DNA from: a virus
Taxonomy: Duplodnaviria > Heunggongvirae > Uroviricota > Caudoviricetes
Reading direction: 5' to 3' (one strand)
Virus record (IMG/VR): IMGVR_UViG_2585427730_000006
Location: 1 to 31,472 of that record
Length of the DNA stretch: 31,472 nucleotides
Shown here: piece by piece, positions 7,039 to 11,244 of the stretch
How positions within the stretch are numbered: the first letter of the stretch is position 1
Layout of the letters: every line of letters starts with the position of its first letter
Notes under the pieces: generated by a model
Databases searched by the model: none
Told to the model about the DNA's origin: nothing
What the model saw: the letters and a program-made list of their open reading frames with translations, nothing else
Program-made: the position numbers and the translations under genes

Positions 7039-7042
7039 AAGC

Positions 7043-7072
7043 TAAAAGCCACCGTAGTGGCTTTTAGCATTT
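7043..7072. terminator. Bidirectional-looking hairpin immediately after Q
   Basis: aaaagccac-cgta-gtggctttt with A-run on one side and T-run on the other; could terminate both Q (+) and the convergent 427-aa gene (-). Confidence 0.5.
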
Positions 7073-7244
7073 TAGGATTGTGCAGGTAATGTTTTGTTCA
7101 ATTTAGTAAAGAAGTTAGATTGGCTTGTTACAGTACGTCGACTCTTTCCAGAAGTACTCAACTGAAAGAAATCATTGATGCTTTTGGGTTGAGTTCTTTC
7201 ATAGGCTTGCTTAAGTGACATGTGTTCCCCTTGTCTATTTGTTG

Positions 7245-8528
7245 CTATGACCGTGAAAAGTAGTGATGGTTCAGTTCTTTTGCAAAATAGTGCTTACGTT
7301 TAACCCAGATAAAACCATCAGCTTTAGAAATGATTGCAACATCTATGGGGCCTCCCACTGTTTCAGTATCATCGGAGACCTTGCGCTTGAAAGCGGTTAA
7401 ATTTACTAATGATTCAGCCATATAAGCTAAATCTTGCTTGGGTAAAAACTCGATCATATTTACGACTTTGTCAACATAGTTTTCTCGGACAAAGCTATCA
7501 ATACGCCCCTTGCAATCGGAAACAGTTCTGCGCACTACATCAACTATAGCATCCTTGGCTCCTTCGATATCTGAAGTGGGCACCAAATCTGTGATTACTG
7601 AATCAATACCATCAAGTAAATCGCCGATAGAACGTTGATACTCAGCATGAAGATTTTGGATAAGATGTGAACTAGCTCCTTGCATGAAAGCAGAAACTTC
7701 ATCCTCTTGCGCAAAGGGAGTCACGCCGCAATTAGGAGTGATGCAGCACTTGTCAGCATCTGTGGTTTTCCTTATTTTATCATTAAAGAAGCCACAAACT
7801 TCATATGATAATACTTTAGGGTAATAGTCTTTATCGCCATAACCTGCAATCACAATCCCAGAGACGGAACCAATATCACTTTGCTTGCATATCATAGCTG
7901 CCAATACATCACTAACTGCTTTTGTCAACTGTGGAGTTATGGATATTGAATCAAAGTCACTAAACTTTTGAGCAATGATGCGTTGGGTAATTGATGAAGC
8001 ATAGGTTTGGGCTGCTTGTTCATCATCCGGAGTAAAACCATCAAAGTAATTAATATCAGATAATTTTGTAAGGAGATCGTTGCAATAATTCGTGAGGTCT
8101 GTAACAAATTGATTCTTATCGAAGTTAACGAGATATGTTGGTTCGAGACCTTCAGAAAAAGCATCAACAAGCATGCTGAATACAATCTCGCTCAGGAAGT
8201 GATAAAGATGAGCCTCACGCATACCTGGTGTGATGATTGATTTAGCTGACTGTAGATAATTGAAGAAATCCTCAGCATATTCCTCCAAAGAGTCAAAACA
8301 TTTAGAGCCTAAATCCTTTCTATAAGCCTTAATGATAAGCTCCCATGGAGCTGTGCAGAGATCACCAGTTCCATATACCATCAAACCTACAGGATGATGT
8401 TTAGTGAGAGCGAAAAGCTTTTCAGCGCCATTATAGATTTTATGTTTGCCGCCTCCAGAAATCGTTACAGCTGAATCTGCGGCTAAAGCTACTGCGGTCT
8501 TGTTAAATACGGCTATTTCTGCTGTCAT
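7245..8528 (-). CDS. Hypothetical protein, 427 aa; possible divergent proteasome-beta/HslV-like Ntn hydrolase with large insertions (inference only)
   Basis: Long ORF in visibly lower-GC DNA, opposite to late-gene orientation. N-terminus MTAEIAVFNKTAVALAADSAVT...GAEKLF aligns by eye with the proteasome-beta/HslV N-terminal segment (Thr1, acidic residue 17, Lys before LF); C-terminal GGPIDVAIISKADGF resembles the proteasome-beta GG.IDVAVI.KDG motif. Confidence 0.8.
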   Translation of the reverse strand: MTAEIAVFNKTAVALAADSAVTISGGGKHKIYNGAEKLFALTKHHPVGLMVYGTGDLCTAPWELIIKAYRKDLGSKCFDSLEEYAEDFFNYLQSAKSIITPGMREAHLYHFLSEIVFSMLVDAFSEGLEPTYLVNFDKNQFVTDLTNYCNDLLTKLSDINYFDGFTPDDEQAAQTYASSITQRIIAQKFSDFDSISITPQLTKAVSDVLAAMICKQSDIGSVSGIVIAGYGDKDYYPKVLSYEVCGFFNDKIRKTTDADKCCITPNCGVTPFAQEDEVSAFMQGASSHLIQNLHAEYQRSIGDLLDGIDSVITDLVPTSDIEGAKDAIVDVVRRTVSDCKGRIDSFVRENYVDKVVNMIEFLPKQDLAYMAESLVNLTAFKRKVSDDTETVGGPIDVAIISKADGFIWVKRKHYFAKELNHHYFSRS

Positions 8529-8636
8529 TTTTTACATAGGGTTTATATGTTGTGTAATGAGAAAAATACAAAAAAATTAACGCGTACGCAAAAATTCTTG
8601 TAATCTGTTAAGAGTGGTTACTTCGCCACACAGCTT

Positions 8637-8668
8637 AAACCCGCCGTCGAGCGGGTTTTTTTGTACCT
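8637..8668 (+). terminator. Rho-independent terminator on the + strand
   Basis: aaacccgc-cgtcga-gcgggttt followed by tttttt; the upstream neighbour is on the other strand, so the terminated transcript is unidentified. Confidence 0.5.
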
Positions 8669-8784
8669 GTAAACTTGGTGCAGTACGGTAAACACGCTGG
8701 TGGTAGTGAATACTGACTTTTTATCTTGCTGGCTTTTTAGACAAGAGTTATTGGTATGTCATGTTAACCAGAAGGGAAAAAGAC

Positions 8785-8979
8785 ATGCTAAAACAGCAAG
8801 ATATGACAGAAACGGCGAAAGTTGTTTTTAATGAATTAAGCATCGAACCGGCAACAGTCGGGGAGATTGCACAAAACACATACCTTTCACGCGAACGCTG
8901 TCAGTTAATACTGACCCAGTTGGTTATGGCGGGGCTGGCAGATTACCAGTTCGGCTGTTACAGACGTCTTCAGCAATGA
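8785..8979 (+). CDS. Small hypothetical protein (64 aa from ATG 8785), possible HTH/winged-helix regulator
   Basis: ORF directly upstream of the methyltransferase gene; purine-rich stretch before ATG 8785; segment ATVGEIAQNTYLSRERCQLILTQL resembles an HTH. Start uncertain (track ORF begins at 8761). Confidence 0.4.
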   Translation: MLKQQDMTETAKVVFNELSIEPATVGEIAQNTYLSRERCQLILTQLVMAGLADYQFGCYRRLQQ

Positions 8980-9128
8980 AGGGCTTTTAATTTGTGAAAA
9001 TGGGCGGCTGGTGGGTGTTGGTAGCACCTGCCAGCCATTCGCTCATGCTTACTGGTCACAAGCGAACCACGGCCCACTGCTTTAGCGCAAAAGCAGAGTG
9101 AGCCTACCAGAGTTACGCTTACTGATCC

Positions 9129-10175: not shown

Positions 10176-10343
10176 ATATGCATTTAATAATTTCTTTATT
10201 TCATAAAAAATAAAAATATATACGTATATTTACAAATCTTGATATGATTTTCCATTGAAAAGAGAGCTGGCATTATTAATATCGGTACCCGGTTCCGAAG
10301 GGGATGTAAGCGCGGTCATTTTTATTTCTCTTGAGGAACCTGT

Positions 10344-10419
10344 GCCGACTTAGCTCAGCAGGCAGAGCAACTGACTTGTAATCAGTAGGTCACCAGTTCG
10401 ATTCCGGTAGTCGGCACCA
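10344..10419 (+). tRNA. tRNA-Thr (anticodon UGU)
   Basis: Hand-folded cloverleaf: 7-bp acceptor stem GCCGACT/AGTCGGC, D stem GCTC/GAGC, anticodon stem ACTGA/TCAGT with loop CTTGTAA, T-loop TTCGATT, encoded CCA. Confidence 0.85.
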
Positions 10420-10422
10420 TAT

Positions 10423-10497
10423 GCGGGTATCGTATAATGGCTATTACCTCAGCCTTCCAAGCTGATGATGCGGGTTCGATTCCCGCTACCCGCTCCA
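10423..10497 (+). tRNA. tRNA-Gly (anticodon UCC)
   Basis: Acceptor stem GCGGGTA/TACCCGC, anticodon stem TCAGC/GCTGA with loop CTTCCAA, T arm GCGGG-TTCGATT-CCCGC, encoded CCA; sequence resembles T4-type phage tRNA-Gly. Confidence 0.85.
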
Positions 10498-10855
10498 GAG
10501 AAACAAGCCTTATTGTATCGTTGCACTGGCGTATTTTTTATTGCGTGGGAGCAGGTTGTTTTTAAAAGGCATTCTGTTTTCTGGCTGTGATTTGAGGTCG
10601 GTTATAGCCACAGTGCTGTTTTTTACACCACTGGAATGGTGCATTATCGGTGGAAATTGAGCATTTCCTGACAGGGGCCGATGATGCACTATCCCGGTGT
10701 TGTAAATAACACTACAGAGGTGTTCCTCAGTGCGAGGGTGGTTTATGTAACTGTTTAGCGGGAAACCACAGTATTCATGGAGAGATGGATACTTCGGGGG
10801 GCACCCGACACCTCTGTTTTTCTACTACAAAAATGATTCATCTCTGGCATTTTTC

Positions 10856-10884
10856 AACCGCCGTTCCGGGCGGTTTTTTTTATT
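10856..10884 (+). terminator. Rho-independent terminator in the tRNA-to-lysis intergenic region
   Basis: aaccgcc-gttccg-ggcggtt followed by an 8-T run. Confidence 0.6.
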
Positions 10885-11201
10885 CTGAACTCAGAAAAGA
10901 ATACACGGGCATTGATATTACCCGTGTGGCAAGGCCATGAAAGCCAATAATGAACTGAGCGCAAAAAAAGCGCGGCTGTCGGATTAACGCCGCGGGACAA
11001 AGTCCGTGAAGAAGAATAAGCATCAGTCTCCTCCAGGAGACGATTTGATATTACTAAGCTTTAAAAATGGTTTAAACCCCCGGATTAACCTTAATTTCAG
11101 ATAAGCTTTATTTCATTTTCTCCGAGCCACGTCAGGCGCATATCACATCAGATAACACCACATAAAAGGTATCTGCGGGTGCCTTTCACGGGGTGTTTTT
11201 T

Positions 11202-11228
11202 TACGGGCCGCTGGTGGCCCTTTTTTAT
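11202..11228 (+). terminator. Terminator-like hairpin immediately upstream of the lysis cassette (candidate tR'-type element)
   Basis: gggcc-gctggt-ggccc followed by ttttttattt, ending ~15 nt before the holin RBS. Confidence 0.5.
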
Positions 11229-11244
11229 TTACAGGAGAAAAAGT

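Follow-up and report, generated by a model that had tools for sequence, protein, structure and literature searches.

In the 31,472-nucleotide (nt) window analyzed here, which covers positions 1 to 31,472 of the IMG/VR virus record IMGVR_UViG_2585427730_000006 and contains a lambdoid prophage region, the late promoter (pR′) and its terminator (tR′) very probably lie at positions 8577–8662, about 1.5 kilobases (kb) past the gene for the antiterminator Q. The locus as a whole can with good confidence be read as a normal Q-dependent late-gene switch, the two halves of which have been pulled apart by an insertion. Comparison of related loci shows where the element lies, that it is linked to the Q allele, and that an insertion separates it from Q. 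An earlier reading based on the sequence alone (referred to below as the sequence-only reading) had proposed two candidate positions for the late promoter, 8540–8668 and 11000–11228; comparative evidence places pR′/tR′ at the first, while the second turned out to be a tandem terminator block that is conserved whatever the Q allele or Q family. The features of the switch are as follows.

6685–7038, + strand: Q antiterminator gene, short form of the Q21 family, 117 amino acids (aa) from ATG 6685 (Pfam PF06530, E = 1.3e-43)
7041–7068, both strands: bidirectional intrinsic terminator hairpin with a 12-base-pair (bp) stem, 2 nt past the Q stop codon (folding)
8563–8576, + strand: A-rich tract 5′ of the −35 hexamer, similar to an UP element, with the right-hand cargo junction just upstream
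8577–8582, + strand: −35-like hexamer TTAACG, 18 bp upstream of the −10 hexamer (sequence reading)
8582–8594, + strand: 8-bp palindrome GCGTACGC (8582–8589) and A5 tract (8590–8594), the proposed Q-binding element
8601–8606, + strand: −10 hexamer TAATCT
8606–8618, + strand: most conserved block, TGTTAAGAGTGGT (conservation profile)
8610–8625, + strand: predicted start and candidate pause region, AAGAGT (−10-like) then GG, with the predicted pause at C8624/G8625
8637–8662, + strand: tR′ intrinsic terminator, stem AAACCCGC/GCGGGTTT (8637–8644/8651–8658) with a T7 run at 8656–8662 (folding)

The comparison drew on 252 loci with related Q proteins, taken from IMG/VR and annotated records, 199 of which carry the element. 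In the Q class of the window, the motif (C/T)TAACGCGTACGCAAAA-N6-TANNNT-GTTAAG was found 1.2–3.0 kb past the Q stop codon in every locus extending far enough, with at least 16 different gap lengths and with an immediate upstream sequence that varies by cargo. The A-rich tract is retained in every cargo context, and it is the sequence farther upstream that changes. The distance between the Q stop codon and the element ranges from −1 to 56 nt in compact relatives and from 0.5 to 3.0 kb in the other loci, where 42 distinct cargo clusters intervene. Among the compact loci, the TAA stop of Q falls inside the box and A5 tract in two (L158 and L159), the entire promoter lies inside the Q reading frame in L235, L243, L236, and their relatives, and the anchor motif GTTAAGAG is found 27–56 nt past the Q stop codon in L192, L011, and L152, with the box of L192 directly abutting the stop codon. 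The Q frame of compact relatives thus overlaps its own late promoter, and in some of them the proposed Q-binding palindrome encodes the last codons of Q. A search for the element with a loose motif and a T-run alone returned spurious sites within cargo, and was discarded.

Homology boundaries point to the same position. The Shiga toxin (Stx) phage Stx2a_1447, with a Q protein 86% identical to that of the window and two different convergent genes 3′ of Q, shares with the window approximately 70 bp upstream of the terminator. When the Q protein is unrelated (QuuQ type), the shared sequence begins only at the terminator, and this is likewise the case for SfV and for a locus with a DUF1133-type Q. 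Because the boundary differs according to Q, the 70 bp or so before the terminator can be said to travel with the Q allele, and the sequence from the terminator onward to be a separate, widely shared module. This terminator, tR′, has an 8-bp stem (−19.8 kcal/mol, z = −2.9), is preceded by no gene on the + strand, is common to Stx phages and SfV, and is annotated as a terminator in the latter. Within the window, the palindromic box and the initial transcribed motif each occur in a single copy. An Rfam search of 6500–12000 at a permissive threshold matched only the two transfer RNAs (tRNAs) described below, with nothing beyond sub-threshold chance matches at 8600–8670 and 11170–11230.

The promoter hexamers are recognizable by which of their positions are retained. 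The pattern TTnnnG recurs at the −35 position in all Q classes. At the −10 position, the relatives carry TATCGT, TATTGT, TAATAT, TAGCGT, TAATGT, TAAGCT, TATCCT, TATGAT, or CAGTAT, so that the hexamer reads T/C-A-N-N-N-T. Two element sets were searched, a smaller one without a constraint on the −10 hexamer and a larger one selected for A(−11) and T(−7); in both, these two bases never change, the interior is free, and the distance from the A5 tract is a constant 6 bp. A functional sigma70 −10 element would be expected to be conserved in just this way. Other placements of the −10 element (TGTAAT, a hexamer 3 nt further upstream, or the A5 tract itself) were rejected, their key positions not being conserved in relatives. 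The possibility that TANNNT is instead a pause element served by a true promoter further upstream was rejected as well, there being no conserved −10 hexamer upstream.

The palindrome in the promoter spacer is probably the Q-binding element. All 81 loci that share the Q class of the window carry the box GCGTACGC unchanged, although their gaps are of at least 16 different sizes. Five box classes, each 8–9 bp long and located beside an A5 tract, were distinguished among the 199 loci.

GCGTACGC: 81 loci
GCGGtCCGC: 39 loci
GGAATTCC: 4 loci
ACGATCGT: 52 loci
ACGTACGT: 23 loci

The class of the box matches the class of Q in all 199 loci, that is, the table of one against the other is perfectly diagonal. 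Furthermore, all five boxes are palindromes, and since an 8-mer is palindromic only 1 time in 256, their symmetry is a product of selection rather than of chance. GCGTACGC, ACGTACGT, and ACGATCGT differ from one another by symmetric double changes, and GCGGtCCGC and GGAATTCC are unrelated palindromes.

The closest pair of classes suggests which part of Q reads the box. The Q groups of ACGATCGT and ACGTACGT are 77–89% identical to each other, and only two alignment columns separate them fully, with CSD[T/C][C/W]IGK in the former and CSDG[Y/L]IGK in the latter; the Q class of the window has G at the first discriminating column and shares the central GTAC. In the window's Q, these columns are G97 and T98, as numbered in the 120-aa open reading frame (ORF), and the AlphaFold2 (AF2) model places both in the opening turn of the second helix in a helix-turn-helix. 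The C-terminal half of this model (predicted local distance difference test, pLDDT, 75–91) contains the helices H69–88 and H93–116, and weak matches to region 4 of extracytoplasmic function sigma factors were found in the same region. With respect to the gene itself, it is labeled 'antiterminator Q family protein' in RefSeq and matches phrog_79 ('anti-termination protein Q-like', E = 6.6e-46) in PHROGs. The ORF of 120 aa is open already from GTG 6676, the RefSeq start is ATG 6685, and both starts overlap the end of rusA (6324–6695).

The segment 8577–8662 could also encode a constitutively made small RNA or regulate the divergent cargo gene, in which case the palindrome would be the operator of another regulator. 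A promoter followed by a terminator some 50 nt on does look like a small-RNA gene, a palindrome has the classic shape of a dimeric repressor operator, and a weak winged-helix protein is encoded just downstream. The palindrome, however, tracks the Q allele and not the cargo, with one palindrome accompanying at least 16 cargos; the downstream protein, WP_000917767.1, is identical next to three palindromes and at a locus that lacks the element; and in compact relatives the element lies at or inside the end of Q. This explanation is accordingly considered unlikely, and its small-RNA part is compatible with pR′–tR′ and so not truly a rival to it. Two candidate readers of the palindrome other than Q were rejected as well: the 64-aa downstream protein (winged helix-turn-helix), identical copies of which are found with three different palindromes and also in the locus lacking the element, and the methyltransferase, the same family of which is encoded downstream of different boxes.

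As the sequence-only reading had it, Q is followed within 5 bp by a hairpin (7041–7068) and then by a convergent gene, for a 427-aa protein on the − strand, and lies approximately 4.2 kb from the lysis cassette (4206 bp as measured from the Q stop codon to the holin ATG at 11245); its view that the late promoter is not directly 3′ of Q is likewise borne out, with homology boundaries and the survey of relatives placing the promoter 1.5 kb away. All of the elements that it described were found at the coordinates given. The claim that the entire 4.2 kb is cargo does not hold. The stretch is in two parts: a low-GC insertion at 7039–8560, so that only approximately 1.5 kb parts Q from its promoter, and, at 8663–11244, 2.6 kb of ordinary late leader 3′ of tR′ of the kind found in Stx phages, phiP27, SfV, and phage 21. 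The guanine-plus-cytosine (GC) content of the insertion is 38–41%, as against 51–54% in the flanks. The cargo is present in 9 of 5426 complete Escherichia coli genomes, and the block of the initial transcribed region and tR′ in 2417 of them. The existence of compact relatives, supported by the low GC content and the rarity of the cargo, indicates that the compact arrangement is the ordinary one and that the window carries an insertion.

In the window, the gene order runs from a DUF968/NinG-like gene through rusA, Q, the hairpin, the convergent 427-aa gene, and a non-coding stretch with tR′ to the 64-aa ORF, the methyltransferase, tRNA-Thr, tRNA-Gly, and the lysis genes, with approximately 750 bp of non-coding DNA containing several terminators between the tRNAs and the holins. 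Prophages 100% identical to that of the window were found in nine complete E. coli genomes, mostly of human enterotoxigenic isolates. Terminator-like sites number 18 in 6000–12500, as compared with 6.6 ± 2.3 in shuffled sequence. The hairpin at the Q end folds with z = −5.4 on the + strand and z = −7.3 on the − strand, has its T-rich tail on the − strand, and is the terminator of the convergent cargo transcript.

Late transcription might instead be read-through from the early operon, with N-modified polymerase passing Q and 7041–7068, and with Q and pR′ decayed. The tail of the hairpin on the + strand is weak (ATTTTAGG), and some read-through is plausible. Such transcription, however, would run antisense over 1.3 kb of the cargo gene and then meet at least four terminators. 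Moreover, Q, the box, the −10 hexamer, and tR′ are intact and identical in the nine independent complete genomes, and hundreds of prophages have kept this architecture. Decay of the switch is for these reasons regarded as very improbable.

The late leader, which includes the second candidate position near the holin gene, contains the following features.

8785–8979, + strand: 64-aa protein of unknown function, the first gene past tR′, with weak winged-helix matches (phrog_331)
9129–10175, + strand: N6/N4 DNA methyltransferase (PF01555, E = 5e-45)
10344–10497, + strand: tRNA-Thr(TGT) and tRNA-Gly(TCC)
10856–10883, + strand: strong intrinsic terminator with a T8 run, 3′ of the tRNAs
11174–11228, + strand: tandem terminator hairpins just before the holin ribosome-binding site
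11245–11637, + strand: first holin gene of the lysis cassette (PF16931 and RefSeq)

A late promoter and Q loading site just upstream of the holin gene (about 11000–11228) would mean that the methyltransferase and tRNAs are not late genes and that 8577–8662 is an unrelated promoter–terminator pair. Such an arrangement would resemble the layout of lambda, and two terminator hairpins do stand right before the holin ribosome-binding site: the second of them, at 11205–11220 plus a T6 run, is followed by that site (AGGAG) and by the holin ATG at 11245. Nevertheless, the block 11174–11228 is nearly identical in loci with four Q alleles (classes A, B, B′, and D) and in the locus with a DUF1133-type Q, where a Q-specific site should differ; being conserved whatever the class or family of Q, it is not Q-specific. 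It also contains no box, no conserved −10 hexamer, and no promoter-like site. In addition, prophages of Enterobacter that share the window's Q class and carry a cargo gene 86% identical to its own (L257, 4766–5000, − strand), but are without the methyltransferase and tRNA region, place the box/−10 unit itself, with two terminators, directly upstream of the holin gene, an arrangement that shows the purpose of the unit. A holin-proximal late promoter is accordingly very improbable. The 11174–11228 block belongs to the holin module and is most plausibly a barrier that would stop polymerase unmodified by Q, for example from a tRNA or moron promoter.

With pR′ at 8577–8662, the small ORF, methyltransferase, and tRNAs are predicted to be Q-dependent late genes like those of Stx phages and phage 21, since they lie on the late strand between tR′ and the lysis genes and since a consensus scan found no promoter-like site between tR′ and the methyltransferase. 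The sequence-only reading had pointed out that the choice of promoter decides the status of the methyltransferase and tRNAs, and the position reached here puts both inside the Q-dependent late unit. WP_000917767.1, the accession of the 64-aa protein, is encoded downstream of different boxes and of different Q families. An AT-rich stretch at 10180–10300 precedes tRNA-Thr and includes a scan-level promoter candidate at 10255–10282 (TTGAAA, 16-bp spacer, TAATAT), from which the tRNAs may have expression of their own in the lysogen. The lysis cassette, on the + strand from 11245, consists of two holins and a GH108 endolysin.

Overall, the proposed switch would operate as follows. The Q subfamily is one of short Q21-family proteins (about 113–130 aa), the compact members of which have a late promoter that begins no more than a few bases from the Q stop codon or even in the final part of the Q reading frame. 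Here, a 1.5-kb low-GC cassette—a convergent proteasome-like gene with its own bidirectional terminator—has been inserted between the Q stop codon and the A-rich tract. Q would still be made from the early rightward transcript and, being diffusible, would act in trans. Without Q, transcription from approximately A8613 would stop at tR′, yielding an RNA of roughly 50 nt. When present, Q would bind to the palindrome and be loaded onto RNA polymerase that is held close to the promoter by a sigma70-dependent pause (AAGAGT-GG, near 8624/8625), and the Q-loaded, terminator-resistant polymerase would pass tR′, the small ORF, the methyltransferase, the tRNAs, the 10856 terminator, and 11174–11228 to reach the holins and the endolysin. 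The exact start site, the pause element, physical binding by Q, and Q-dependent read-through are all steps that we infer from the sequence.

Transcription is predicted to start at A8613 ± 1, which is 7 nt from the −10 hexamer, with G8612 and G8614 also possible, and the tR′-terminated RNA would be roughly 48–50 nt long, similar to that of phage 21. The initial transcribed region aligns with that of lambda (AACGATGGGTTAATTCGC versus AAGAGTGG-TTACTTCGC), and the conserved AAGNNT plus GG, spanning about −3 to +3 relative to the predicted start, resembles lambda AACGATGGG. In relatives, AAGAGT is replaced by AAGTGT, AAGGAT, AATAGT, or AATTGT, always with retention of the A and T relevant to sigma region 2. 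AAGAGT-GG may be the sigma-dependent pause element, an assignment to which we give somewhat less than an even chance, and a pause at C8624/G8625 is hypothesized. The terminated pR′ RNA (8613–8662), with its 5′ hairpin GUGGU...GCCAC and terminator U-tail, could act as a small RNA, and the pR′–tR′ RNA of Stx phages has been reported to be a regulatory small RNA (review, PMC8065619).

Several points weigh against this interpretation. The promoter matches the consensus weakly, in four of six positions at −35 and only three of six at −10, and a consensus promoter scan requiring at least four of six matches per hexamer did not flag the pR′ site because both of its hexamers are weak, an outcome that was counted as evidence in neither direction; the case for pR′ rests on which positions are conserved. 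The conservation of the −10 hexamer is itself biased in the larger search by the imposed A(−11) and T(−7), and only the smaller set is free of this bias. The IMG/VR loci are redundant, comprising 94 unique elements and 112 unique Q proteins. With respect to the pause, AAGAGT would sit at about −3 to +3, whereas the pause element occupies +1 to +6 in lambda and +2 to +7 in phage 21; this more upstream position makes the assignment uncertain. The N-terminal half of the Q model is poor (pLDDT below 50), and a Foldseek comparison of the model with the PDB gave weak matches only, none of them with an E value under 3, some of which were to sigma region 4 domains. Finally, Q and its box are physically linked, so that some co-inheritance is expected without function. 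Pure linkage seems insufficient, however, because the association survives 42 different cargos and because only recognition-helix residues discriminate the nearest classes.

Two ORFs are found within the insertion, both on the strand opposite to Q.

7245–8528, − strand: cargo gene, 427 aa, uncharacterized, with a proteasome beta-subunit-like fold (N-terminal nucleophile, Ntn, hydrolase) and helical insertions (AF2 model and Foldseek)
7072–7221, − strand: 49-aa ORF 3′ of the cargo gene, between it and the terminator, unannotated in RefSeq

The cargo protein matches phrog_5990, an unnamed PHROG, and has no match in Pfam, PADLOC, or NCBIfam; more than 6000 homologues were found across Enterobacterales, Vibrio, and Alteromonas. 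Its AF2 model (pLDDT 84) matches 20S beta subunits in Foldseek (E about 2e-4, probability 1.0). The N-terminus MTAEIA and D18 are invariant. These residues would presumably fit an Ntn hydrolase of the Thr1/Asp17 type, and together with the fold they suggest that the protein is an N-terminal threonine hydrolase. A 46%-identical homologue is encoded directly 3′ of a Toprim/VapE-type primase-like gene (L261 and L262, both 5001–6302), and the element has genes for an integrase and AlpA as well; an accessory immune region has been reported at this position in phage-inducible chromosomal islands (PICIs) (PMC11364771). The cargo gene is a candidate new defense gene, for which a defense role is a reasonable guess and nothing more. 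The 49-aa ORF, without a match in Pfam, NCBIfam, or PHROGs, is possibly not a gene at all. On the − strand within 8529–8580, a putative promoter (TTGTAT 8571–8566, 18-bp spacer, TATAAA 8547–8542) could serve the cargo gene divergently. This promoter shares sequence with the A-rich tract of pR′, and a transcript from it would be nearly leaderless and lack a Shine–Dalgarno sequence.

The window is one of many loci in which the gap between Q and its promoter is occupied. In this gap, 42 sequence-distinct cassettes were found, most of them convergent with Q and starting with a hairpin that abuts the Q stop codon. Those among them that Pfam and PADLOC recognize encode PD-Lambda-5 A and B, a ThsB-type TIR protein, GmrSD, a KAP NTPase, a RelA/SpoT-domain protein, and a caspase-like protease, as well as an NYN nuclease, OmpC-type porins, methyltransferases, and ORF6N-domain proteins. 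A comparison of cargo between Q classes, made to look for independent exchange, found only distant similarity, with 31–34% identity between classes A and C. In the Q classes of ACGATCGT and ACGTACGT (L095, L099, L106, L116, L118, and L131–L133), an ORF6N-domain gene is the most frequent cargo; it lies on the + strand, codirectional with Q, and its transcription would hence be part of that of the early operon rather than convergent. The site is like the defense hotspots of P2 prophages, P4 satellites, and PICIs in that a fixed site between conserved flanks receives many unrelated cassettes, including known defense genes, and differs from them in being the junction of a regulator gene and the promoter under its control. 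Full-text literature searches returned no description of a Q-to-promoter hotspot or of pR′ for this Q subfamily, a result that is not proof of their being undescribed. The module 3′ of tR′ is already known from Stx phages. In the ten E. coli records listed, no annotated feature underlies the block of the initial transcribed region and tR′ (8607–8662).

Taken jointly, a large subgroup of the Q21 family with short, loop-less Q proteins would read a single 8–9 bp palindrome plus A-tract in the late-promoter spacer, and the junction of Q and promoter would be a swap site for more than 40 defense and moron cassettes; we consider it about equally probable that this combined proposition is right or wrong. 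If it is true, the central dinucleotide of the palindrome would be read by two residues where the recognition helix begins, a mode of Q–DNA recognition other than the direct-repeat mode solved for Q21, and one cassette of the swap site would represent an uncharacterized proteasome beta-like family with more than 6000 members. The promoter unit would furthermore supply a rule for locating late promoters across a group of enterobacterial prophages that is very common. In some Stx2a phages and in phiP27, stx2 is under the control of this same Q subfamily and promoter unit, and known pairs of Q and box may allow prediction of which Q switches on which toxin operon in strains with multiple prophages. 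A palindrome that co-varies with the Q allele would also provide a basis for a specificity swap in a textbook regulator, and the Q-to-promoter junction would be a place to seek new defense genes.

From tR′ onward, Stx and related converting phages (phiP27, Stx2a phages, SfV, and an LT-IIb phage) are 82–91% identical to the window, with which they have the small ORF, the methyltransferase, the tRNA slot, and the holin leader in common. In Stx2a_1447/WGPS2 and phiP27, cargo likewise lies between a Q of the same subfamily and the same promoter unit. Unlike in these phages, no toxin gene is found here between the tRNAs and the holin gene, and tRNA-Thr and tRNA-Gly take the place of tRNA-Ile and tRNA-Arg. 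According to a comparative study, the reference pR′ site is missing from several Stx prophages (PMC6266700).

The logic of the lambda switch—constitutive promoter, sigma-dependent pause, and terminator—would be the same, and its initial transcribed sequence, AACGAT GGGTTAATTCGC, is strikingly similar to AAGAGT GG-TTACTTCGC of the window. The Q family of lambda is unrelated, however, and its terminated RNA is 194 nt long. The −10-like element of lambda begins at +1, 6 nt past the −10 hexamer, whereas that of the window begins 3 nt past it.

The closest parallel in layout is that of phage 21, the Q protein of which belongs to the same Pfam family (PF06530) and has a DNA-binding half similar to sigma region 4. 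The annotated record of phage 21 runs from Q through the −35 hexamer, a Q-binding element (QBE) in the spacer, the −10 hexamer, a sigma-dependent pause element (SDPE) at +2, and a terminator about 50 nt on to tRNAs and the holin gene, and the layout proposed here is the same. The second helix of Q21 has been reported to read the major groove of an element in the −35/−10 spacer, a placement that is alike in the window. In sequence, the window's Q matches the Q21 chains 6p18/6jnx over residues 12–90 against 20–99 of Q21 (phmmer, E = 0.0024). There are also differences. The window's Q, with 117 aa as compared with 162 aa, is 45 residues shorter; the 17-residue loop of Q21 (residues 105–121), which contacts the minor groove and the second protomer, is absent from the model, in which only about four residues appear to link the two helices. 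Phage 21 has two direct 8-bp repeats, ATTGAGCA/AATGAGCA, in contrast to the one 8–9 bp palindrome with A5 in every class here. Moreover, in the window the −10-like element overlaps the predicted start, and Q and its promoter are 1.5 kb apart. The switch described here is thus a variant within the Q21 family, not a copy of Q21.

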